The translations under genes and the position numbers were made by a program. A stretch of DNA of 64,000 nt from positions 7,993 to 71,992 of the forward strand of contig JABHLG010000013.1 in assembly GCA_018692915.1 (NCBI GenBank). Reading direction: 5' to 3'. Shown here in pieces: positions 5,263 through 63,735 of this stretch. The notes under the pieces were generated by a model, which worked only from the letters and a program-made list of their open reading frames with translations, was not told where the DNA came from and searched no databases. This stretch comes from Candidatus Woesearchaeota archaeon (GTDB lineage: Archaea; Nanobdellota; Nanobdellia; UBA10117; JABICX01). The number at the start of each line of letters is the position of its first letter. Positions within the stretch are counted from its first letter, which is position 1.

Positions 5263-5573
5263 TTAGCCTTTGACTACGACTAGCGGTTTTAGTTTAGCAA
5301 CCTTTTTCGCAAGTCCGGTTTTATGAAGAACACCAATCAGCTTTTGACGTGCAAAAGCTGGCAAAACACTTTCCTGCGCATTGCTTGGAAAATTAACCTT
5401 TTACAACCACTATTGGCTTCAACTGAGCTTTTTCTTACAGAAAAAGTTCGCAAAAAGAACGTTGTTTTTCCAAAACAACTGCTTCGCAAATGCAATTTAT
5501 CCTTTTACAACTACAAGAGGTTTCAATTTAGCAACCTTTTTCGCAAGTCCGGTTTTATGAAGAACATCAATAA
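5263..5573. repeat. Nested terminus-duplication locus at the rtcB 3' end
   Basis: On the plus strand the order is displaced copy 3 (5263-5339, encodes VLHKTGLAKKVAKLKPLVVVKG*) and a B-type hairpin element (5340-5392). Then come displaced copy 2 (5393-5422, LKPIVVVKG*), an A-type element (5423-5496) and the functional rtcB end (5497-5573). Confidence 0.85.
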
Positions 5574-6979: not shown

Positions 6980-7861
6980 CTATTTTTTGCTTTTAACCTT
7001 TTTGATTTGTTCTTCGGAGATTAAATCATTTGATAGCCACTTATCAAGGTTTTCTCGTCCATAGCTTGATAATTCATAATATATTCTTCCTTGTCCATTT
7101 ACTGCTTTTCTTATTTTGCTCTCGATTCCGAAGGTCTCTAACTCTTGCTTAACTCGGTCTAGATTTTCTTTTAGAATAGACATTAATCTAACGGTATATG
7201 GTTTCCGAGTTCGTGCTTTTTCTTTAATAATTTTATTACTGCCTTTTGAGAAATCCCAATTGTAATTAACATATGTCTCAATTGATTCTCTTAATCGTTT
7301 TTTCTTAAATGGATGAAGAAATCCGATTTCTTCTTCAAACTTAATTAGCTGATCTTTTCCATAAATACAAAGTGTAGCTGTGTCGCGATTACTTCTAGGT
7401 CTAATTGATGTACTAATATCAAAATGTTCTTTAAGCAAATTTGCTACTTGTTGCAATCCTTTATGATTTACACTGTCTGTACCGATTGCACGATTCTTTG
7501 CTTTTCTCACCCAAACCCAGCCTTCGCAATCAAAGAATGCTCTCAGCCAACGCGCAGCTTGCTCCTTATTCATATATTTCATAACATTCCAGTCTCTTGA
7601 ATGAAATGATCCATAATTATTTACAATATTAAAGTAAATATATTTAGAACCAACTGAACATCGATCCATATCTTTATTCATGTATGGAGTTATACCAAAC
7701 ACTTTCTCGAATTTCTCTTGAAAATCTAACAATAATTTCTTATTTGTATTTCTCAGACCAATATAGTAATACTTCTGTTTCTGTGTTTCATGATTACGAA
7801 TTACATATCCATCTGCACATAAATACGCATGCACTGCTGCAAAATCAGAACTATTCTCCAT
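6980..7861 (-). CDS. free-standing double-motif LAGLIDADG endonuclease-like protein
   Basis: Two LAGLIDADG-type motifs (AVHAYLCADGYV and RWLRAFFDCEGWV) followed by a C-terminal extension of about 100 aa. The stop lies 10 nt before the rtcB ATG. Confidence 0.7.
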   Translation of the reverse strand: MENSSDFAAVHAYLCADGYVIRNHETQKQKYYYIGLRNTNKKLLLDFQEKFEKVFGITPYMNKDMDRCSVGSKYIYFNIVNNYGSFHSRDWNVMKYMNKEQAARWLRAFFDCEGWVWVRKAKNRAIGTDSVNHKGLQQVANLLKEHFDISTSIRPRSNRDTATLCIYGKDQLIKFEEEIGFLHPFKKKRLRESIETYVNYNWDFSKGSNKIIKEKARTRKPYTVRLMSILKENLDRVKQELETFGIESKIRKAVNGQGRIYYELSSYGRENLDKWLSNDLISEEQIKKVKSKK

Positions 7862-14278: not shown

Positions 14279-14312
14279 ATTTTAATTATATTTCAAGATA
14301 TATATAATTTTA

Positions 14313-14330
14313 GAAAAGCTATTTAAATTA
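14313..14330 (+). promoter_or_regulatory. BRE/TATA-like promoter (gaaaagctatttaaatta)
   Basis: Purine-rich BRE followed by a TATA-like box about 25 nt upstream of position 14350. That position is the displaced 5' copy of tRNA-Ser, not the mature 5' end. Confidence 0.45.
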
Positions 14331-14349
14331 AATACCGAACTTTTAATCA

Positions 14350-14412
14350 CGTCGGGGCAGAGCTTAAAACGTAATGCGTTTTAGCTGGTCCCAACTCGTA
14401 AACTCGTCGGGG
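14350..14412. repeat. Terminus-duplication locus at the tRNA-Ser 5' end (E-type element)
   Basis: cgtcgggg (14350-14357), then a 47-nt hairpin element cagagcttaaaacgtaatgcgttttagctgg... (14358-14404), then cgtcgggg (14405-14412, the acceptor stem). Confidence 0.7.
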
Positions 14413-14489: not shown

Positions 14490-14493
14490 CTTA

Positions 14494-14510
14494 GAAAAGC
14501 TTTATAAATC
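14494..14510 (+). promoter_or_regulatory. BRE/TATA-like promoter (gaaaagctttataaatc) for rpl37ae
   Basis: Same motif as at 14313. The TATA box lies about 26 nt upstream of ATG 14530, which implies a leaderless mRNA. Confidence 0.45.
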
Positions 14511-16470: not shown

Positions 16471-17247
16471 ATGAAATATATATTCAAACTATCTGGAGAG
16501 AATTATAATCTAGCAAAGTTTGAATTAGAAACTTTACTTAACAAAAAGCTGAAACGAAACAAAGATTCTGTTTCAATTGATTTGCCATTATCTACTGAGC
16601 AAATTAATAAAATTTGCAATCGCTCTGCAATGATTCAGAAATGCTACACTAATAACTTAAAAATTTGGGCAGCTAAATCAGACAAACGATTTGTTGCGAG
16701 GGTGCCGAAAAAGAAACCTAAACAACATCCTGCAATGCTCAAACCAAAGATGGCGCGTTTACTTGTAAATCTCACTAACGCTAAAAAACAGATTCTAGAT
16801 CCCTTTTGTGGAACTGGTTCAATTTTAATTGAAGCGGGAATTCTTGGTCTAAAACCTATTGGCTCAGATATTGATAGTAAAATGATCGAATACTCAAAGA
16901 TCAATACCAAACAATTCAAAGTTAAATCGGAACTAAAACAACTTGATGCAACTCAACTAGAAACTAATTTTAAAAATATTGAAGCAATTGCATGCGACCC
17001 ACCATACGGTATAAGTTCTACTCTTGCTGGAAAGAAAATGCAAGATTTATATCCAGACTTTCTAACAAGTGCAAATAAAATTCTAAAAAAAGGTTCTCGC
17101 TTAGTAATGGTTCGACCACATTATCTAAAACTTGGAGTCAACAAAGACTGGAAAAAACTAGGAGAATTTGACTGGTATATGCACAAAGGACTTACTAGAA
17201 AAATATTAGTACTTGAAAAAAGAAGTGCTACGAGCAATGCGAAGTAG
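16471..17247 (+). CDS. SAM-dependent RNA methyltransferase (Trm11/UPF0020-like, N2-guanine type)
   Basis: DPFCGTGSILIEAG (motif I) and ACDPPYG (motif IV). The last 7 codons (SATSNAK) read into an inserted element. Confidence 0.6.
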   Translation: MKYIFKLSGENYNLAKFELETLLNKKLKRNKDSVSIDLPLSTEQINKICNRSAMIQKCYTNNLKIWAAKSDKRFVARVPKKKPKQHPAMLKPKMARLLVNLTNAKKQILDPFCGTGSILIEAGILGLKPIGSDIDSKMIEYSKINTKQFKVKSELKQLDATQLETNFKNIEAIACDPPYGISSTLAGKKMQDLYPDFLTSANKILKKGSRLVMVRPHYLKLGVNKDWKKLGEFDWYMHKGLTRKILVLEKRSATSNAK

Positions 17248-17335
17248 TGTGCTTTTGCCAGCTTTTTCACTAAAAAGCTGTGTGTATATGCACAAAGGAC
17301 TCACTCGGAAGATTTTAGTATTAGAAAAGAGGTAA
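17175..17335. repeat. Terminus-duplication locus at the methyltransferase 3' end (B-type element)
   Basis: Copy 1 is 17175-17223 (YMHKGLTRKILVLEKR). The element is 17224-17283 and contains hairpin agctttttcactaaaaagct. Copy 2 is 17284-17335 (YMHKGLTRKILVLEKR*). Confidence 0.85.
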
Positions 17336-19579: not shown

Positions 19580-19617
19580 CTTTTAAATCAAAAACAAACC
19601 ATATAATTAAAGGTTCT

Positions 19618-19750
19618 GCGCTCGTGGTCTAATGGCTCATGATTCTAGCCTTCCAAGGAATCCCTTCTTAGAAAGAAGGTCTTCCAACCCCAAGAACTAT
19701 TCTTGTGGAGAGGAGAGCTGGAGGTAGGGGTTCGATTCCCCTCGGGCGCA
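19618..19750 (+). tRNA. tRNA-Gly(UCC) with 60-nt intron at 37/38 (19656-19715)
   Basis: Hand fold. Acceptor gcgctcg/cgggcgc, anticodon stem ctagc/gctgg, loop ctTCCaa, T arm agggg-ttcgatt-cccct. The intron carries the D-type core aatcccttcttagaaagaaggtcttccaaccccaagaac. Confidence 0.8.
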
Positions 19751-19799
19751 TATTATTCTTAATTAGTAAGGCTTAAAAACCAAAAAAATGAACTAAAAT

Positions 19800-33144: not shown

Positions 33145-33836
33145 TTCTCTCTCCTTTTTTTCTCAATTGCACCATCTTTTAACCAAAAGACATTATCTAC
33201 ACCTTTAAGTTTTGCGAATCGAGGATCGTGAGTTACGATAATTAATGTTTTTTTATGTTTTTCATGTAAGTCTAATAGCAAATCCATAATTTGCTCGCCC
33301 ATTTTAGAATCAAGATTTCCTGTTGGTTCGTCAGCAAGAATAATTTCAGGGTCATTAGCAAGTGATCTTGCAATTGCTACTCTCTGGCGCTCTCCACCAG
33401 ATAATTCACCGGGGCGATGAGTCATACGTTCTCCAAGGCCGACAAGCCGTAGTATTTTTTTTGCTTTTTCAACTTTATCTAAAACAAATGATCTCTTAAA
33501 TATCATCGGTAATGTAACATTCTCAATAGCTGTTAATGTTGGAATTAAATTAAATGTTTGAAAAACAAAACCAATTTTCTCTCCACGAACTTGTGCAAGT
33601 GTGCTCTCATCCATATGTGCAATATTCCTTCCATCTAATTTAACAATGCCTTTTGTTGGTAAATCTAACGCACCAACCATATTCATTGCAGTTGATTTAC
33701 CTGAACCAGATGGCCCCATAATAACTGCAAAATCTCCCTTATTTATTGTAATATCTAAACCTCGCAGTGCCGGAACTTCAACACTACCCATCTGATAAAT
33801 CTTCCAAACGTCTTGAACATCAATTATAGCTTTCAT
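33141..33836 (-). CDS. ABC transporter ATP-binding protein (MacB/LolD-like)
   Basis: Walker A GPSGSGKST, LSGGERQR, ILADEPTGNLD. Confidence 0.9.
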   Translation of the reverse strand: MKAIIDVQDVWKIYQMGSVEVPALRGLDITINKGDFAVIMGPSGSGKSTAMNMVGALDLPTKGIVKLDGRNIAHMDESTLAQVRGEKIGFVFQTFNLIPTLTAIENVTLPMIFKRSFVLDKVEKAKKILRLVGLGERMTHRPGELSGGERQRVAIARSLANDPEIILADEPTGNLDSKMGEQIMDLLLDLHEKHKKTLIIVTHDPRFAKLKGVDNVFWLKDGAIEKKRREK

Positions 33837-33924
33837 TTATACCTCCGAAGTTTGTGAGACTCGCTAAAATTTTGTTTAGCTCTGTCTTCCAAACGCCTTG
33901 CACATCTATTATTGCCTTACTCAT
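33801..33924. repeat. Terminus-duplication locus at the ABC ATPase 5' end (E-type element)
   Basis: Functional start copy 33801-33836 (MKAIIDVQDVWK), element 33837-33885, displaced start copy 33886-33924 (MSKAIIDVQGVWK). Confidence 0.8.
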
Positions 33925-34082
33925 ACGTTCAGTATTATCTCAACTATTTAATATTTCTGTAGTATTGATTAGATACGACAGTTAGTAAGTATTATAAGAA
34001 CAAAATTCTATATTTATATACATCAAATCCTAATGGATTTGCTGTCTCTTAATTCCTATTTAAATAGGATAATGGAACAAAG

Positions 34083-35864: not shown

Positions 35865-36036
35865 GAGCCAGTAGCTTAGTCTGGATAACCGTTAGGTTCT
35901 TGCTGAACCTTGGTTCAGGAATAGAGCACTTCCCTCCTAAGAGCTTTTTCTTTTCTAAAGAAAAAGTTCGCAAAAAGAAACTAATTTTTGTAAAAGAGGT
36001 AGGAAGGGGTCGCAGGTTCGAATCCTGTCTGGCTCG
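35865..36036 (+). tRNA. tRNA-Arg(CCU) with two introns (D-loop 35888-35923; 37/38 position 35941-36001)
   Basis: Hand fold. Acceptor gagccag/ctggctc, D stem gctt/gagc, anticodon stem cttcc/ggaag, loop ctCCTaa, T arm gcagg-ttcgaat-cctgt. The canonical intron carries the A-type core gagctttttcttttctaaagaaaaagttcgcaaaaagaaac. Confidence 0.75.
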
Positions 36037-37692
36037 TTATTCAAATTTGATTTCTTCGCGTTTTGCAAGAGCTTCTAAAATTGCTTTACCTAAGCCGCTC
36101 TTTTTGAAAATACGTATTTCTCTAGAACGTGAAAGTGGAAGTGTAGCTAGAACTTCGCCATTAATAGTTAAGTCTGCTCGCCTTGCATGGTCAAGGAAAT
36201 AAAACTCGAAATATTTTTTGCTTTCCTTAAGCCGATATCTTAATGGAGCTTGGCTCTTATTTTTTGCTTTATTATGAACAGGCATGACAACAGTCGCATC
36301 TCCAAAAGTATAAATTTCATATTCTAAAGTTCCGTCTTCAAAATCATATATATCAACAACAGGTCTTGCTAAGTCTTTATCATTCATACCTGTTGGGCAT
36401 TTGACATTCATCTTTAATCCAAAGACTTTTGCAACTTTTCCATCTTTAATAAAAATTACTGTATCTAAAATATGTGGAATCATTCCTAATTCAACTTTAC
36501 CAATAAATCTCTGAATTGCATCAATTGGATTTGCTGCGTGCACAACCCCAACCATACCAACACCAGACAGCCGCATATCTGCAAACAATTTAAAATCTGG
36601 TGCATCTCTAACTTCATCATATAAAGTATAATCTGGGCGGGTTAGGAGCAAAATATCTTTTAGTTCCTGGTGACTTGCTTTTGCTGTTGAAAGTTGCGTG
36701 ATTTCAGGAGGTAGCTGTAAATCTCGTGGAGCTTCTAATGACTTTACAACTTTCTTTTTCTCAGAATAAACTTTAGCAAGTGCTTGTGCGAATGTAGATT
36801 TTCCGTGTCCTGGAGCTCCAGAAATAAGTATTCCTTCTGCGCGTTCTAAAAGTCGTGCTTTAATTTTAATATCTAATTTGTAATCTTTTAGTTCTAATTT
36901 CTTTACAGGTCGAACAATTGTGATTTCCCAAGAATTTGATAAAGGTGGTCGAGTAACAACTATTCTGTACTGTTTAACTTGTGCAATTAAGCTTCCCTTT
37001 CTTTCAATCTCAAGAAAACTATTTTTTAAACTTCTTGCTGCCTCAATTATCTCATCTGAAATTGCTTCTAATTCTTCTGACTTTAAAATATTTTTATCTA
37101 TCTCAATAAATTTCCAAGCGCCAGGCTTGCCTGCTTTAGCTCTAGGAAGTGCACCTTCTTTGAGATGAACAGACATATAATCTGGTTTGAAAAGTTTAGG
37201 AAAAGTAAGGTCTTCTTCAGTAATACCTGAAGGAATGTGAATAACATCCATCCCTGTTGCTTTGCCAACTTCTGCCTGAACCATATCAGAAGTTATCATA
37301 GTTGCTTTCAAATCCTCAGCTAGCTTTCGGATTTTTGAATCAATTCCACCTTTTTTAGCAAACTTAATTTCTTCGATTGTCGGCTGTTCTCCTGCAAAAG
37401 TTAATTTAAATTTTTTCTTGTTAGCAAGCTCTCTAAGTCTTTTGATTTCATCAAGACCAATAAAACCAATTTCCCTACCAGAATTAGCTTGATTCTCAAG
37501 CTCAGAAAGCATTGCATTATGCAAAATCAGCTCTTTAAATTTCAGTTTGCCTTTTGCAAATTGCTTTGAAATAACAATATTAATAATCGCAGATGTATCT
37601 GGAACAAGCTTAGTTATGCCTGTTGTTTTAGCATTTGTCTTAATCAAAGATTCTCTAGATTTCCTTCTTATCCTTTTTGTCGGACTAACCAT
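36037..37692 (-). CDS. PIN-domain / PilT-like P-loop ATPase / KH-domain protein (COG1855-like)
   Basis: N-terminal PIN-like region, Walker A GAPGHGKSTF, C-terminal KH-like tail. The stop abuts the tRNA-Arg 3' end. Confidence 0.55.
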   Translation of the reverse strand: MVSPTKRIRRKSRESLIKTNAKTTGITKLVPDTSAIINIVISKQFAKGKLKFKELILHNAMLSELENQANSGREIGFIGLDEIKRLRELANKKKFKLTFAGEQPTIEEIKFAKKGGIDSKIRKLAEDLKATMITSDMVQAEVGKATGMDVIHIPSGITEEDLTFPKLFKPDYMSVHLKEGALPRAKAGKPGAWKFIEIDKNILKSEELEAISDEIIEAARSLKNSFLEIERKGSLIAQVKQYRIVVTRPPLSNSWEITIVRPVKKLELKDYKLDIKIKARLLERAEGILISGAPGHGKSTFAQALAKVYSEKKKVVKSLEAPRDLQLPPEITQLSTAKASHQELKDILLLTRPDYTLYDEVRDAPDFKLFADMRLSGVGMVGVVHAANPIDAIQRFIGKVELGMIPHILDTVIFIKDGKVAKVFGLKMNVKCPTGMNDKDLARPVVDIYDFEDGTLEYEIYTFGDATVVMPVHNKAKNKSQAPLRYRLKESKKYFEFYFLDHARRADLTINGEVLATLPLSRSREIRIFKKSGLGKAILEALAKREEIKFE

Positions 37693-39084: not shown

Positions 39085-39633
39085 TTATTTTTTATTAACT
39101 AATTTTGATATATTACCAAATGCTTTTCTAACATGTTTAGCTTTTGTAGTAAATTCTCCTGAATGTCTAATTAAATCATAATGTTGGACAGCATTAACTA
39201 TATCATCTAATCCCTCAGTTGATATAAACTTAGCTGAAAGCATTAAAGAATTCACGTGCGTACCTCTACCCTGTCGACCGCTAATGTGTCTCTCTTTTTG
39301 TATAGGATTATCTAATCCATATTTTTCAGATATATATTCTGCTAATCTAATTACAGCTAATTTATTATATAAATTATAATTATTATCTTGATTTACAAAA
39401 CCTTCTTCTAATTTTAAACTTGGCTCTTCTATATCCCGTTCTAAAACAATATCTATTGTAATAATTCCATCAAAATCAATTTTCTTGAACTGTTGTGCTA
39501 AATTATCTGAAATTGGCTCTAAAGAAGTTTTAACACTATAAGTATTATTTTTAAAGTCTAAGTCATATTTATCGCCGCCTTGGTGTTTACAAACACCTGC
39601 TTCATTTAAATATCTCCGAACTTTATTTTCCAT
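39085..39633 (-). CDS. hypothetical protein
   Basis: 182-aa ORF only. Confidence 0.3.
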   Translation of the reverse strand: MENKVRRYLNEAGVCKHQGGDKYDLDFKNNTYSVKTSLEPISDNLAQQFKKIDFDGIITIDIVLERDIEEPSLKLEEGFVNQDNNYNLYNKLAVIRLAEYISEKYGLDNPIQKERHISGRQGRGTHVNSLMLSAKFISTEGLDDIVNAVQHYDLIRHSGEFTTKAKHVRKAFGNISKLVNKK

Positions 39634-39683: not shown

Positions 39684-39811
39684 GCCTCTATAGCTCAGCT
39701 GGTAGAGCGTTACCCTCGTAAGAATCCCTTTCTTGTAAGAAAGGTCTTCCAACCCCAAAGAACGGATTCGGAAAAAGGTAAAGGTCGCAGGTTCAATTCC
39801 TGCTAGGGGCT
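39684..39811 (+). tRNA. tRNA-Thr(CGU) with 55-nt intron at 37/38 (39721-39775)
   Basis: Hand fold. Acceptor gcctcta/taggggc, D arm gctc-agctggta-gagc, anticodon stem ttacc/ggtaa, loop ctCGTaa, T arm gcagg-ttcaatt-cctgc. The intron carries the D-type core. Confidence 0.85.
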
Positions 39812-39920
39812 CTAACCTAAATAAGAAATATCTTTTATATCTCAGCTTTCTTCCAAGAAAGCTGGCAAAGAAACCTGCTAACTCAGTTGCTTCGCATTAG
39901 CCAAGGTAGCTAATGTCTTT
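39812..39920. repeat. Terminus-duplication locus at the PAC2-like gene 3' end (B-type element)
   Basis: Displaced copy 39812-39835 (KDISYLG*). Element 39836-39896 (cagctttcttccaagaaagctggcaaagaaac...gcttcgca). Functional end 39897-39920 (KDISYLG*). Confidence 0.85.
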
Positions 39921-42016: not shown

Positions 42017-42263
42017 CTTTTCTATCTCTCGAGATCGAAGATCTCCAGATACACTAAAGAGAATAAAAGTAAAACCAAACGCTAGGAAATCTGAAATCTT
42101 AGAAGAAACTGAAAATGAAATTAAGATTGCAATAGCTGCACCTGCACAAGATGGAAAAGCAAATACCGAACTTATTCGATTTCTAAAAAAAGAACGCAAT
42201 TGGAAATGTAAAATTGTTTCAGGGCTAAGATGTAAGAATAAACTTATTCAAATCCAAGAATGA
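41988..42263 (+). CDS. DUF167 (YggU-like) protein; start uncertain
   Basis: IKIAIAAPAQDGKANTELIRFLKK...IVSGLRCKNKLIQI. The present C-terminus (..QIQE*) reads into an inserted element. Confidence 0.55.
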   Translation: MVIKKNKKSDFSISRDRRSPDTLKRIKVKPNARKSEILEETENEIKIAIAAPAQDGKANTELIRFLKKERNWKCKIVSGLRCKNKLIQIQE

Positions 42264-42367
42264 ATTTCGCGACGAACAGATAAAGTGTTCTGAGGAGCGA
42301 AGTGGTGCGAACTGGCGCTGTCAGTTCATGTAAAAGGAAAGACTAATAAGAATAAACTTATTCAAAT
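42233..42367. repeat. Terminus-duplication locus at the DUF167 3' end (C-type element)
   Basis: Perfect 21-bp direct repeat taagaataaacttattcaaat (42233-42253 and 42347-42367) around a 93-nt insert containing gcgacgaacagataaagtgttctgaggagcgaagtg. Confidence 0.85.
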
Positions 42368-47148: not shown

Positions 47149-47283
47149 ATGGATAAAATTCATATATACACGCAAGGATGCACAGGAGCTTTTTCCGCTT
47201 CGCGCAAAAAGTTCGCAAAAAATACATATTATAGAGGTTACTCAAAATGATAAAAATCTATATACATACACAAGGTTGTACAG
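47149..47283. repeat. Terminus-duplication locus at the MiaB-like gene 5' end (A-type element)
   Basis: Displaced start copy 47149-47185 (MDKIHIYTQGCT). Element 47186-47246 (gagctttttccgcttcgcgcaaaaagttcgcaaaaaatac...). Functional start 47247-47283 (MIKIYIHTQGCT). Confidence 0.8.
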
Positions 47284-50742: not shown

Positions 50743-50867
50743 CTATGCGTATTCTCTCCAAGTGTGATTGCCATTTTCTTTCTTGAAAGAAAGAAACTAT
50801 GCTTCCAAAGAAAGAACATATACTCGTGCTTCGCACGCAATTATGCGTATTCTCTCCAAGTGTGATT
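50743..50867. repeat. Terminus-duplication locus at the tfs 3' end (D/B-like element)
   Basis: 27-nt repeat (50743-50769 and 50841-50867, NHTWREYA*) with 26/27 identity, TAG vs TAA. It flanks a 71-nt insert gccattttctttcttgaaagaaagaaactatgcttccaaagaaagaac...gtgcttcgcacgcaa. Confidence 0.85.
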
Positions 50868-51155
50868 ACATTTAATGCATCTATAAAATTGGGTCTCTGC
50901 TTCATCAGTAGATCTTGTTTGTAATGACCAATTATATGCTTCAAGATGTTTGCATTTTGGGCACTTTTCTTTAACTTTTGCTAAAGTATCTGCAGTTTCC
51001 TCTTTAACTTTATGATTATCTTCGCAATCTGCTTTTTCTTTTAAAGATAATTCTGCTTTTGAATGTGATGAGTAACCACAAGAACAATGTATATTCTTCT
51101 TATCTGAAGATGGAATTAATAGACCACCACATTTTGGACAAAAAGGTGTGTTCAT
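50841..51155 (-). CDS. tfs: transcription factor S / RNAP subunit M family
   Basis: N-terminal CPKC..C.C ribbon and C-terminal CPKC...QTRSTDEAETQFYRCIKCNHTWRE TFIIS ribbon. Confidence 0.85.
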   Translation of the reverse strand: MNTPFCPKCGGLLIPSSDKKNIHCSCGYSSHSKAELSLKEKADCEDNHKVKEETADTLAKVKEKCPKCKHLEAYNWSLQTRSTDEAETQFYRCIKCNHTWREYA

Positions 51156-55304: not shown

Positions 55305-55351
55305 AGAATGTAATATAGTCTTAAGTATATATATTTTTTGTGTTAGTTATT

Positions 55352-55441
55352 ACTGACGAAGTCTGTTCCACTGACGAAGTTAGTGATACTGACGAAGTCT
55401 GTTCCACTGACGAAGTTAGTGATACTGACGAAGTTAGTTGT
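55352..55441. repeat. Tandem repeat, five 18-bp units (actgacgaagtctgttcc / actgacgaagttagtgat alternating)
   Basis: Read directly. Units start at 55352, 55370, 55388, 55406 and 55424. The last unit overlaps the stop of the 1167-aa ORF. Confidence 0.9.
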
Positions 55442-61544: not shown

Positions 61545-61614
61545 ATGTAATAAAACAATAGAAATTATTTATAGTTTACTAAAGAATATAACAAAATAAA
61601 TACTAAAAAATTAA

Positions 61615-61910
61615 AAATCCCTAACTTTCTTCCTCAGAACTCAAGATATGTTCGTCAGAAAATTAACATAATATATTAATAAATAATATTATATTTCTTA
61701 ATTAAAATTAAAGTCCTCTTCCTGTTGCACAAACTTCAGGTGAAGTTTGATCACACCTTTGCTCCTCAGAATCCAAATTATATTCGTCGCAAAATAATGC
61801 CATTGGTTAACCAATTACTAAATTGAAAATCTCTAAATTTTCATTAAAAATCAATATAACATATTAATATACACATTTAACTCTATTCAAAATTAAAGTC
61901 CTCTTCCTGT
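61615..61910. repeat. Terminus-duplication locus at the 3' end of gene 61893-62534, with two tandem C-type units
   Basis: 22-bp perfect repeat aaaattaaagtcctcttcctgt at 61704-61725 and 61889-61910. C-type cores are ...cttcctcagaactcaagatatgttcgtcagaaaat (61629-61663) and ...tgctcctcagaatccaaattatattcgtcgcaaaat (61760-61794). Confidence 0.75.
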
Positions 61911-62534
61911 AGCTGTAATTGTTGCACTTAGAGCTCCTGTTTGATTTGCATCTGTTGGGATAATTAATTGTATTTCAACATTAATTGAATTATTAGCTTG
62001 ATTTGCATCAAGAACAGAACAAATAATATTTGCTGAAGTGTTAATATCTGTAAAACTTGTGTCAACTATATCTGCACAGGAATCTGATTCATTTTGTTCG
62101 ATTTTCCATCTAAAAGCAGGGTCTGAACCACCAACAAAATCTTCAGCAGTTTTATTTGCTGTAAGATTTAACTCAATTAAATCTCCACCAATATTTTCAA
62201 GAACTAAAGATTGACTTGTAGCTGTCCAATTTCCCCCAGTTACTGATTTCGCATCTGTATCTAATGTAGCATTTTCAAAACCACCTGTAACTGAGCCAGT
62301 TCCCCAATCTATTGCTGCTGACGTCCAATTAATTGCTGTAACAGATTCTATTGTTACTGTAGCGGTTGCATTTGAATCTGATGTAACAAAACCTGTAAAT
62401 CCCATACTATCTCCTAAAAAGAAATCAACCATAGACAAACTAATAGCTACAACTAACAAAAGAGCTAATAGCTCATTTGATATATTAAATCCTTTTCTTT
62501 TGCTAGACTGTCTCTTCCTGCTCACCATTTTCAA
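61893..62534 (-). CDS. secreted protein with pilin-like (class III-like) N-terminus
   Basis: KRKGFNISNELLALLLVVAISL N-terminus followed by FTGFVTSDS. Thr/Asn-rich with many sequons. Confidence 0.4.
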   Translation of the reverse strand: MKMVSRKRQSSKRKGFNISNELLALLLVVAISLSMVDFFLGDSMGFTGFVTSDSNATATVTIESVTAINWTSAAIDWGTGSVTGGFENATLDTDAKSVTGGNWTATSQSLVLENIGGDLIELNLTANKTAEDFVGGSDPAFRWKIEQNESDSCADIVDTSFTDINTSANIICSVLDANQANNSINVEIQLIIPTDANQTGALSATITATGRGL

Positions 62535-62727: not shown

Positions 62728-62780
62728 TAATTATAATATATCTTATTCTATATAAACTTTATGTGAATTTTAATAGAATT

Positions 62781-62889
62781 AATTAAAATTACTAACATCC
62801 TGTTCCTGTGTAATCCCTTCTTTTAAAAAGAAGGTTTTACAATCCCAAGAAATAAATTATAATTAAAATTACTAACATCCTGTTCCTGT
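62781..62889. repeat. Terminus-duplication locus at the 3' end of gene 62872-63735 (D-type, tRNA-intron-like element)
   Basis: Perfect 29-bp direct repeat aattaaaattactaacatcctgttcctgt (62781-62809 and 62861-62889). It flanks the 51-nt element gtaatcccttcttttaaaaagaaggttttacaatcccaagaaataaattat. Confidence 0.9.
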
Positions 62890-63735
62890 CTGGACATATC
62901 TGAAATTTACTACATTATTGTATGTTCCTGCAGGTTGTGAAAGTGGTATTGATAACCAGAATCTAAAGTATTCATTATCTCCGCCTGCTACATTAGTGTC
63001 TGCATTTACAAAGCTAGTTGTTAATCCTGTAGCGCTTCCGATTGCAGGTGTTGTTGAACTTGTTGATATTGCAGATACCCATGTCATATTATCTAATCCA
63101 AGACTATTATCTGTGCTGTTTAGGTCATCGTCTGCGTTTACGCAGAAGTCAATTGGCACATTGGAATCATTAGATACTGCCAAATACATTGAACTTCCAC
63201 TACTATCGTTATTGTAGTTGTCTGTAGCATTATTATTATCTGTTCCTGCTGTTGCTGTTCCAAATTCAATACCATCTAATAAATTATCAGATCTAGCAAC
63301 TGCGAAGTAAGCAGTAATATTTGCTTCTGCTGTAACTTGCGAACTATCTCCTGCAAATCCTGTAATACTTGTTGGGATTTGTATTCCAGCTAGCGCTGCA
63401 AGAACCATCATAAATATTGCAGCTACTCCAAATGCTTTCTTTGCACTTTCTCTGAAGTCTGCCTTTGCTTTATTGTGTCTTAAAGCATGCAAGGTATCTT
63501 CAAACTGTGTTTTTCTTTCAACCCACTCTGCATCCCATTGTTCTGTTGTTTTGCCTTCAAGGATTGCATTTCTATGTAATAGATAGTGTTCTTGGTCAAG
63601 CACTCCTGCTGCAAACGCAGTATTTAGTTCCTCTAGCTTTCTTGCTATTTCTGTCCGTTTAGCTTCTAATCTCTCGAGAGATGTTTCTAGGTAGCTTATT
63701 TTCCTATCTGAAACAAAGCTAAACTTTCTAGACAC
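62872..63735 (-). CDS. membrane protein with N-terminal coiled-coil, TM and Asn/Thr-rich ectodomain
   Basis: 287 aa. TM segment followed by SITGFAGDSS. No family recognised. Confidence 0.4.
   Translation of the reverse strand: MSRKFSFVSDRKISYLETSLERLEAKRTEIARKLEELNTAFAAGVLDQEHYLLHRNAILEGKTTEQWDAEWVERKTQFEDTLHALRHNKAKADFRESAKKAFGVAAIFMMVLAALAGIQIPTSITGFAGDSSQVTAEANITAYFAVARSDNLLDGIEFGTATAGTDNNNATDNYNNDSSGSSMYLAVSNDSNVPIDFCVNADDDLNSTDNSLGLDNMTWVSAISTSSTTPAIGSATGLTTSFVNADTNVAGGDNEYFRFWLSIPLSQPAGTYNNVVNFRYVQTGTGC

Follow-up and report, generated by a model that had tools for sequence, protein, structure and literature searches.

A tRNA intron core between duplicated gene ends in a marine Woesearchaeota genome: a probable case of recent insertion

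The 64-kb stretch of DNA analysed here (the window, W in comparisons; related contigs are indicated by L numbers) derives from a marine Candidatus Woesearchaeota and hosts, at positions 62810..62859 of the plus strand, a 50-nt non-coding element, hereafter E. E is located behind the stop codon of a protein gene, reproduces the 5' core of an intron family residing in tRNA-Gly, tRNA-Thr and tRNA-Trp genes, and is bracketed by an exact 30-bp direct repeat corresponding to the end of the gene itself. The same site is found with and without E in nearly identical DNA. E is probably the product of a recent DNA-level insertion of the ~43-nt core of the intron family, closest to the tRNA-Trp type, into a 64-nt spacer, and would represent a non-autonomous mobile element associated with a long target duplication. 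The window has a GC content of 32%, and is 100% identical to contigs of the NCBI metagenome-assembled genome (MAG) GCA_018672575.1, assigned to Candidatus Woesearchaeota, as well as to contigs of several marine oxygen-minimum-zone metagenomes.

Structure of the element

The gene next to E (62872..63735, minus strand) encodes a hypothetical protein of 287 aa, which has no Pfam domain and ends with VQTGTGC*. Five codons (TGTGC), the TAG stop and 12 nt of 3' flanking DNA make up the repeat, which occurs only twice, at a spacing of 80 bp. The copy at 62860..62889 is the functional end of the gene, the one at 62780..62809 a detached copy of it. A preliminary description of the locus had rightly reported an element behind a stop codon and a perfect repeat including the gene end, but had set the repeat to 29 bp (six codons, the stop and 11 nt) and the element to 51 nt (62810-62860). 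The intron-sense strand of E is the plus strand, and E is thus antisense to the host mRNA, as already proposed. The element is made of a hairpin, CCCTTCTTTT/AAAAGAAGG, a tail, GGTTTTACAATCCCAAGAA, and ~8 nt of junction sequence, ATAAATTA. Both its strands fold into a strong extended hairpin.

Relatedness to tRNA introns

Intron-aware ARAGORN runs identified in the window a tRNA-Ser gene and three intron-containing tRNA genes (Gly, Thr and Arg), and these calls agree with the results of an Rfam search. Two of the introns are of the type found in E (G-type). The tRNA-Gly(TCC) gene (19617-19751) carries a 60-nt intron at 19656..19715 on the plus strand, the bulge-helix-bulge (BHB) motif of which is in the relaxed hBH form (H1 TTCTAGC/GCTGGAG, H2 CTTC/GAGG). 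The tRNA-Thr(CGT) gene (39684-39812) carries a 55-nt intron at 39721..39775, on the same strand. The core common to E and the two introns consists of a hairpin (CCCTTCTT..AAGAAGG) and, 3' of it, GGTYTTMCAAYCCCAAGAA; an additional T in the 5' arm of the Thr intron is balanced by an additional A in the 3' arm.

Homology of E to both introns had been claimed by the preliminary description, and the claim withstands shuffled-sequence statistics. Local alignment scores, evaluated against 2000 dinucleotide shuffles, were 50 for E and the Gly intron (z=13.7), 34 for E and the Thr intron (z=7.8), and 53 for the two introns (z=14.1); a second scoring set gave z=16 for E and the Gly intron. When E was scanned on both strands of the window, the two best non-self matches were precisely the Gly (50) and the Thr (34) intron. 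The best whole-window score of shuffled E was 28.4 on average (sd 2.8), and never exceeded 37. The similarity to the Gly intron is therefore significant in DNA of this composition, while the similarity to the Thr intron is significant solely through the link between the Gly and the Thr introns.

A pattern scan of GTDB representative genomes detected the element in two other places only. One match, in the related Woesearchaeota MAG L020, is the intron of the orthologous tRNA-Thr gene. The other is an intron of 64 nt from a further Woesearchaeota MAG (L021), hosted by a tRNA which ARAGORN calls Arg, but which we read as tRNA-Trp(CCA) from its anticodon loop, CUCCAAC. E and this intron are identical at 41 of the first 42 aligned nt (z=26), and share the variant TTTTACAATCCC, diagnostic of E; the Trp-type variant reads TTTACAA. 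E starts within 1 nt of the intron 5' splice site (GTAATCCC vs GGAATCCC), and lacks the last 10-14 nt of the intron. This missing 3' segment builds helix H2 of the Gly and Trp introns, and in tRNA-Gly accounts for the central helix (4 bp) of the relaxed BHB motif.

Other origins of E were considered and rejected. E is not the integration-site remnant of a tRNA gene, as homology ends at the intron core and exon sequences are lacking, nor a C/D-box or other known RNA family, given that no Rfam match was obtained even at an E-value <= 0.1. A viral or plasmid origin was dismissed because G-type and A-type patterns (A-type being the type found in tRNA-Arg, see below) had 0 matches in IMG/VR.

Filled and empty alleles

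The exact 287-aa host protein is encoded by 17 contigs, ten of which have been inspected at the E site. Eight of the ten, each from independent assemblies, show the filled structure, with E and the two repeats. L001 (sample ERZ27237601) carries the 30-mer in single copy and no element, exactly 80 bp being absent. Its flanks are identical to the window at 100% over 1141 bp on one side and at 99.97% over 7.4 kb on the other, setting aside the 80-bp indel and one tandem-repeat length change. L001 is a natural, clean empty-site allele in otherwise near-identical DNA. Contig L006 ends at 62783, as expected of an assembly fork in a sample containing both alleles. The gap behind the host gene measures 64 nt in the empty and 144 nt in the filled state.

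Repeat collapse does not explain L001, because a 30-bp repeat is far below the k=141 of the assembly. The filled allele, in turn, has been assembled identically in at least eight independent samples, by two assemblers, and in MAG GCA_018672575.1. Since L001 and the window are near-identical apart from the indel and the tandem-repeat length, the event at E must be very recent, as the preliminary description had suggested from the perfect repeat. The event is either an insertion accompanied by a 30-bp target duplication or the exact reversal of it.

The same element in a distant species

Homologues of the 287-aa protein were compared for the distance to the next gene. In five intermediate or outgroup lineages, with 86-56% protein identity, the gap is 72, 88, 50, 50 and 55 nt; these lineages appear to lack the element, because 50-88 nt are too short for an element plus a repeat. 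A gap of 145 nt, filled by the same element, was found behind an orthologue (62% identical) in L060/L062 (GCA_018650885.1). This copy is antisense like E, begins with GTAATCCC as well, and is identical to E at 40 of 43 core positions. It lies between 29-nt repeats of the end of its own gene, coding for VQNGQSCS* and VQNGWSCA*, the boundaries of which are shifted by 6-9 nt relative to the window. The occurrence of one element at orthologous sites of distant species implies that landing is not simply random. Either the site has been targeted repeatedly, or the filled site has spread between lineages, or the element is ancient and has often been lost.

Similar inserts at other gene and tRNA ends

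E is not an isolated case. A short-range repeat search of the window, followed by inspection, revealed at least ten instances in which a hairpin-containing segment of 30-90 nt is sandwiched between direct repeats of 19-75 nt which include the terminus of a gene or of a tRNA. Exact repeats measure 30 bp (E), 26 bp and 21 bp; older ones span 34-75 nt. The repeat copies have diverged at the 3' ends of rtcB and of a methyltransferase gene, at the 5' ends of an ABC-ATPase and of the MiaB-like gene, and at the 5' end of tRNA-Ser. Members of at least three sequence families are represented. Four or five inserts are, by alignment, significantly similar to tRNA introns, namely E, the element X2 at rtcB, the element next to the MiaB-like gene, the one at 17223-17283 and, weakly, the one at 50770-50841. 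X1 and the inserts at 33834..33884 (D6), 42254..42346 (D16) and 14358..14389 (D17), described below, showed no significant intron homology by alignment scoring.

The tRNA-Arg(CCT) gene (35865-36037, plus strand, true start 35865) hosts two introns, a canonical A-type intron of 61 nt (35940..36000) and a second one of ~36 nt in the D-loop (35886..35921, boundaries +/-1-2 nt), both on the plus strand. As anticipated by the preliminary description, the A-type core recurs at rtcB and next to the MiaB-like gene; these copies are also flanked by duplicated gene ends, in line with the mobile population landing at protein-gene termini which had been envisaged. X2 (5424..5496, plus strand) is located downstream of rtcB, antisense to it, and scores z=17 against the Arg intron, which is 87% identical to 5425-5459 over 39 nt (E-value 2.5e-8). 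X2 separates the functional rtcB end (5497-5527, LKPLVVVKG*) from a fossil end (fossil B, 5393-5423, LKPIVVVKG*). A C-type hairpin element, X1 (5338..5389, plus strand), separates fossil B from a 75-nt fossil end (fossil C, 5263-5337), and is homologous to the reverse complement of 17223-17283 and to L030 2839-2880. As a result of two nested events, the rtcB C-terminus is thus present three times, and the gap downstream of the gene measures 275 nt in the window, vs 69 and 32 nt in relatives with RtcB proteins 90% and 82% identical.

The MiaB-like gene (Pfam UPF0004 and Radical_SAM) is preceded by an A-type element plus spacer at 47186..47246 (plus strand), with a fossil start (47149-47185, MDKIHIYTQGCT) on one side and the functional start (from 47247, MIKIYIHTQGCT) on the other. 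This copy matches the tRNA-Arg intron of the window exactly over 16 nt (47206-47221), and the one hosted by tRNA-Arg in the related contig L026 at 91% identity (z=15). A C-type element (17223..17283, minus strand; z=7.5 vs the Arg intron) marks the end of a methyltransferase gene, between 48-nt repeats at 17175-17222 and 17284-17331. All A- and C-type copies start with (C)AG(A)GCT right at the repeat boundary, which corresponds to the 5' splice site in tRNA-Arg, and vary at the 3' end.

Behind a TFIIS-like gene (50841..51155, minus strand) resides a 72-nt hairpin insert (50770..50841, plus strand; D12) between exact 26-bp repeats (50744-50769 and 50842-50867). Its similarity to introns is weak (z=6.8); it is not significant by profile, and was therefore rejected as a clear G-type member. 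D16 occupies a gene-gene junction between exact 21-bp repeats (42233-42253 and 42347-42367), and in L023 the same junction is an ATGA stop/start overlap free of insert. At the corresponding junction L028 carries a different hairpin insert of ~50 nt, with no obvious repeat. D6 (minus strand) lies between duplicated 5' ends of an ABC-ATPase gene (33800-33833 and 33885-33918) and carries within it the target end copied in inverted orientation. It is common to W and L028, and the site is empty in L020 and L022. D17 (32 nt, plus strand) sits at the 5' end of the tRNA-Ser gene, between copies of the leader plus the first 7 nt of the tRNA (14335-14357 and 14390-14412). A 19-nt promoter-like direct repeat (TTAGAAAAGCTATTTAAAT, 14310-14328 and 14491-14509) brackets the whole tRNA-Ser gene together with this upstream insert. 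A tRNA 5' end is involved also in L030 (2805-2900), where a fossil tRNA-Thr 5' end, GCCTCAATAGCTCA, and a C-type hairpin element are found upstream of the real tRNA. No strain polymorphism was observed at the D12 and rtcB sites, which are fixed in all the contigs examined. Several inserts (e.g. at 5476-5484, 50825-50835, 47196-47206 and 17238-17246) share, in their 3' modules or in their loops, a recurrent mini-hairpin, GCTTCGC (GCGAAGC when read on the opposite strand), the closing pairs of which co-vary; it is found in some tRNA introns as well (L026, L049 and L046).

Turnover of tRNA introns among relatives

Introns belonging to the families found among the inserts have been gained, lost or replaced between close relatives. 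The tRNA-Thr(CGT) orthologue is intronless in L028, which shares ~90% nucleotide identity with the window, and hosts a G-type intron in the window, L020, L022 and L030 (~73% identity). In L027 it hosts an A-type intron, in L025 an unrelated one of 37 nt, in L049 a composite of 125 nt. tRNA-Gly is intronless in L027. tRNA-Arg has the D-loop intron in the window, but lacks it in L028, where a T-loop intron is found instead; canonical tRNA-Arg introns range from ~32 to 68 nt across relatives, where the ARAGORN call looks reliable. In L028 and L027, the orthologue of the tRNA-Arg gene has the opposite orientation with respect to the neighbouring genes.

The same intron sequence is found in tRNAs of different identity, the G-type in Gly, Thr and Trp, the A-type in Arg and in the Thr of L027. 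The Thr intron is better conserved than its own tRNA exons, being identical at 53 of 55 positions between genomes in which the exons differ at 5/38 and ~9/36 positions. A patchy distribution of highly identical introns is the mark left by horizontal or homing-like spread rather than by vertical decay.

Fossil ends and recombination

The duplicated ends are not simply decaying. The copies at 17175 and 17284 differ at 8 of 48 nt with no change of amino acids (e.g. AGA vs CGG). The detached methyltransferase end is not a decaying pseudo-end, because all eight differences are synonymous. Similarly, the three rtcB ends (functional end A, 5497-5571; fossil B, 5393-5423; fossil C, 5263-5337) differ nearly only at synonymous sites, and A and C both encode KLKPLVVVKG* despite nine differences. 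Fossil C has codons in common with the rtcB gene of the outgroup L067 which end A does not have, and for this reason the fossil has the appearance of the original resident, and the functional end that of an import or a replacement. A functional end of imported origin beside a resident fossil is reminiscent of the attL/attR logic of integrase att sites. Allele replacement or recombination also shapes the loci hosting inserts. At the ABC-ATPase locus, the detached upstream start (33885-33925) is 40/40 identical between the window and its ~90% identical relative L028, while the element is identical at 45/51 and the functional start at 35/42 positions. An ORF (open reading frame) encoding a free-standing, homing-endonuclease-like LAGLIDADG_3 protein (293 aa; 6980-7861, minus strand) ends 2 nt before the rtcB ORF. 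In relatives this ORF is missing at this place, and upstream of rtcB are found instead a dCMP deaminase and an archease gene, or a cupin gene.

A model for the spread of intron cores

How E reached its site is best pictured as follows. The elements would be non-autonomous, and drawn from the pool of tRNA introns. A staggered break, with nicks ~20-75 bp apart, would be filled in to yield the duplication, and the intron core would enter the gap as a copy made on a tRNA gene, or on the corresponding excised intron RNA, through a templated or retroposition-like insertion carried out by host enzymes or by an enzyme acting in trans. Copying of this kind is suggested by the sharp 5' end coinciding with the 5' splice site and by the ragged 3' end, reached via target-like filler; it fits best also because repeats are long and variable, ends are not inverted, and no protein is encoded. 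Sequences may have moved from tRNA to intergenic sites, or from a common pool to both. Plausibly, only insertions sparing genes persist: at gene termini the duplication restores the stop or the start, in tRNAs the insert is removed by the splicing endonuclease. The duplicated end could eventually permit precise loss of the insert, or serve as a homology arm for recombination with diverged alleles, replacing the gene body together with the functional end. Homologous recombination at the orthologous site could, moreover, carry the filled allele into new lineages.

Several observations weigh against this picture. The tRNA-Trp donor of E was not recovered for the host genome. No transposase, reverse transcriptase, integrase or Cas domain was detected in the ~45 ORFs of the window that were examined, the LAGLIDADG_3 ORF adjoining rtcB being the sole mobility-type gene. 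The elements have no clear terminal inverted repeats and vary at the 3' end, unlike classical MITEs (miniature inverted-repeat transposable elements). From the polymorphism alone, an insertion is indistinguishable from a precise deletion mediated by the repeats. In older duplicated ends the differences are almost exclusively synonymous, a bias which plain duplication followed by decay does not predict, and for which the model needs recombination with diverged alleles in addition. Finally, the only two non-tRNA G-type copies which a profile search detected in 420 kb of related sequence are those at the orthologous gene end, and both start with GTAAT, not with GGAAT; this is compatible with an old or a targeted element no less than with a random insertion of recent date.

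Alternative explanations

Foremost among the alternatives, though in our opinion unlikely, is that no mobile element is involved, and that E arose by a one-off templated insertion during break repair, or by template switching at replication, 40-50 nt being copied from a tRNA intron before re-annealing 30 nt upstream. This would account for repeats varying in length from 21 to 75 nt, for the target-like filler at 3' junctions (ATAAATTA beside TAATTAAAATTA in E, AACTAAAGTTAG beside AACTAA in L060), for the inverted copy of the target end in D6, and for the lack of transposases in the window. Random template switching, however, should take arbitrary segments of the genome, whereas a few sequence families recur at many sites in several species, with sharp, identical 5' ends, and one family is found at the same site in two species.

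We are slightly more sceptical of the view that E is an old, ancestral element of the 3' untranslated region maintained by selection, as a hairpin terminator, a stabiliser or an antisense RNA, and that empty alleles are repeat-mediated deletions. The presence of the same element in the same orientation behind the L060/L062 orthologue, and the strong extended hairpin formed by either strand, speak in favour of this view. Against it stand the five lineages with gaps too short for element and repeat, the offset of 6-9 nt between the repeat boundaries of the two species, the 30/30 identity of the window repeats, 12 non-coding nt included, the polymorphism of the site inside one population, and the lack of an Rfam match. 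The similarity of the two copies (40/43) is no obstacle to independent insertion either, as the tRNA-intron source is itself conserved across species, and independent copies would look alike.

The BHB motifs which the preliminary description had suggested looking for on both strands are missing from the plus strand of E, the intron-sense one, in which neither a period-length nor a boundary BHB was found. Pairing between the repeat copies on the mRNA strand can yield a geometrically perfect hBHBh' (GTTAGT-AATT-tta-ATTA ... TAGT-AATT-tta-ATTAAT), predicting an intron of exactly 80 nt (62864..62785, minus strand), excision of which would recreate the empty-site RNA. E plus one repeat might thus be an mRNA intron, excised as an 80-nt circle by the tRNA splicing endonuclease and RtcB. 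We consider this very unlikely. The motif consists of A-U and G-U pairs only, is not part of the minimum free energy fold, and arises because the repeat holds a stem with a 7-nt loop starting at the palindromic AATT. As many as 1.9% of random 30-bp targets from the window give an equally good hBHBh', 12% a weaker one, and both cuts fall after the stop codon, so that splicing would leave the protein unchanged. The motif is probably a coincidence. Moreover, a period-length BHB was found in none of nine other duplicated sites, and mRNA splicing was accordingly rejected as a general cause of the conservation of fossil ends.

A mini-CRISPR (clustered regularly interspaced short palindromic repeats) unit, ectopic spacer integration by Cas1-Cas2 and an assembly artefact can be practically discarded: 30-bp repeats around a 50-nt unique segment do look like one repeat-spacer-repeat unit, but the repeat is the coding end of the gene and occurs only twice, repeats of the other events measure 19-75 nt and follow no fixed ruler, cas genes are missing from the window, and an artefact is at odds both with the identical assembly of the filled allele from at least eight samples by two assemblers and in GCA_018672575.1, and with a repeat shorter than the k=141 of the empty contig.

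Comparison with known systems

Transposition of tRNA introns in Thermoproteales is reportedly the subject of work by Fujishima (2010, Mol Biol Evol 27:2233). Similar introns across different tRNAs have, according to reviews, been taken there as evidence of transposition at the DNA level, by a mechanism unknown (PMC4090602, PMC4033280). The same intron sequence in different tRNAs, and patchy presence among relatives, are features also of the system described here, the host of which belongs to DPANN. In Thermoproteales, as those reviews present the matter, similarity is from tRNA to tRNA only; here protein-gene termini and tRNA 5' ends are involved too, along with long duplications, and one copy has been caught as a filled/empty polymorphism. 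In Caldiarchaeum subterraneum a tRNA gene is disrupted by a 1.8-kb recombinase-encoding element, with heterogeneity in the population (Sugahara et al. 2012, PMC3293823). Recent intron gain seen through population heterogeneity, and a duplicated tRNA fragment beside the inserted element, are points of likeness; the inserts described here, in contrast, measure 30-90 nt and encode nothing.

The elements resemble MITEs and REPs (repetitive extragenic palindromes) in being tens of nt long, non-coding, hairpin-forming, multi-copy, mostly intergenic and close to gene ends, and dependent on functions provided in trans. For the E family, multiple copies and a filled/empty site polymorphism have both been found. 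MITEs, however, generate target duplications of 2-10 bp and have terminal inverted repeats, whereas duplications at E and its relatives span 19-75 bp, and inverted ends are limited to GTAAT...ATTA(T) (4-5 bp) in E and lacking in other copies; an insertion sequence (IS) which could act as the parent of a MITE was not seen in the window. REPs and IS200/IS605 elements insert beside a short motif without duplicating the target, unlike E with its 30-bp duplication. CRISPRs have repeats of fixed length unrelated to coding sequences, and cas genes, and neither feature is found at E; the integrase att-site model requires an integrase-bearing element between the repeats, where E provides only 50 nt. 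Classical MITE, REP/IS200-605, CRISPR and integrase models each miss a defining feature.

Long direct repeats of variable length (8-514 bp) are formed upon insertion by IS1634 and IS1549, the only known transposons with this property, for which no mechanistic model is put forward in the paper describing it (PMC2266710). These elements are 1.5-2 kb long, with a DDE transposase and inverted ends, and none of the kind resides in the 64-kb window. The defined 5' end, the variable 3' junction, the long and variable duplications and an abundant small-RNA source call to mind the target-primed retroposition of SINEs (short interspersed nuclear elements). The difference is that neither a reverse transcriptase nor poly(A) nor an internal promoter is apparent here, and the RNA intermediate is inferred. 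A literature search returned no report of tRNA-intron transposition in a DPANN host, of intron-family copies outside tRNAs, of long duplications restoring termini, or of filled/empty polymorphism.

Other features of the window

The genes of the window are ordinary chromosomal ones, coding among others for ribosomal proteins, RtcB, archease, CTP synthase, purine synthesis enzymes, PCNA and ThrRS. An ORF of 182 aa without Pfam matches (39085-39633, minus strand) adjoins the tRNA-Thr gene and is missing at this place in L028; within it, a weak C/D-box-like Rfam match (sn2317, 39134-39199, minus strand; E-value 0.077) is under the gathering score. An 18-nt tandem repeat (TACTGACGAAGTCTGTTC / CACTGACGAAGTTAGTGA, 55351-55440), located at the end of a gene coding for a cadherin-like protein of 1167 aa, differs in length by 36 nt between strains. 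Behind a paralogous gene (61893..62534), an imperfect tandem duplication of ~185 nt (intergenic, 61599-61913; repeat pairs D5, D9 and D15) takes in the last codons (ATGRGL*) and the stop of that gene.

Implications for archaeal introns and compact genomes

On the whole, the early reading of E as a relative of tRNA introns which moved recently is supported. How archaeal tRNA introns spliced by proteins are gained and moved has been an open question since their transposition was inferred in Thermoproteales. The E locus provides a snapshot of the process, a copy of an intron core with defined ends, a 30-bp target duplication and an empty allele in the same wild population, which argues that the event acts on DNA, makes a staggered break and reaches beyond tRNA genes. 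Compact DPANN genomes accumulate small inserts which remodel gene termini.

A bolder proposal concerns the introns themselves. Strict BHB motifs were searched for in the Gly, Thr and Arg pre-tRNAs of the window and rejected, relaxed hBH forms only being found. In the tRNA-Arg D-loop intron (35886-35921), helix H2 is formed between the exon end, TCTGGA, and a copy of it at the intron end, TCAGGA. This architecture resembles the pairing of the repeats at E, and keeps open the possibility that target duplication at quasi-palindromic sites creates spliceable introns. According to this view, the BHB tRNA introns of this lineage would belong to a population of tiny elements which is spread over the genome and generates target duplications, and would be those of its members that reside in tRNAs; a duplicated stem-loop or quasi-palindromic target would build the helix-bulge-helix by repeat pairing, and the endonuclease would remove one period, that is the element and one repeat. 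The proposal is speculative, and we deem it unlikely. Were it true, each insertion of this kind would be born as a spliceable intron, or one mutation away from it, and a concrete mechanism would be at hand for the origin and spread of archaeal introns, possibly including excised 80-nt circles homing back by recombination.

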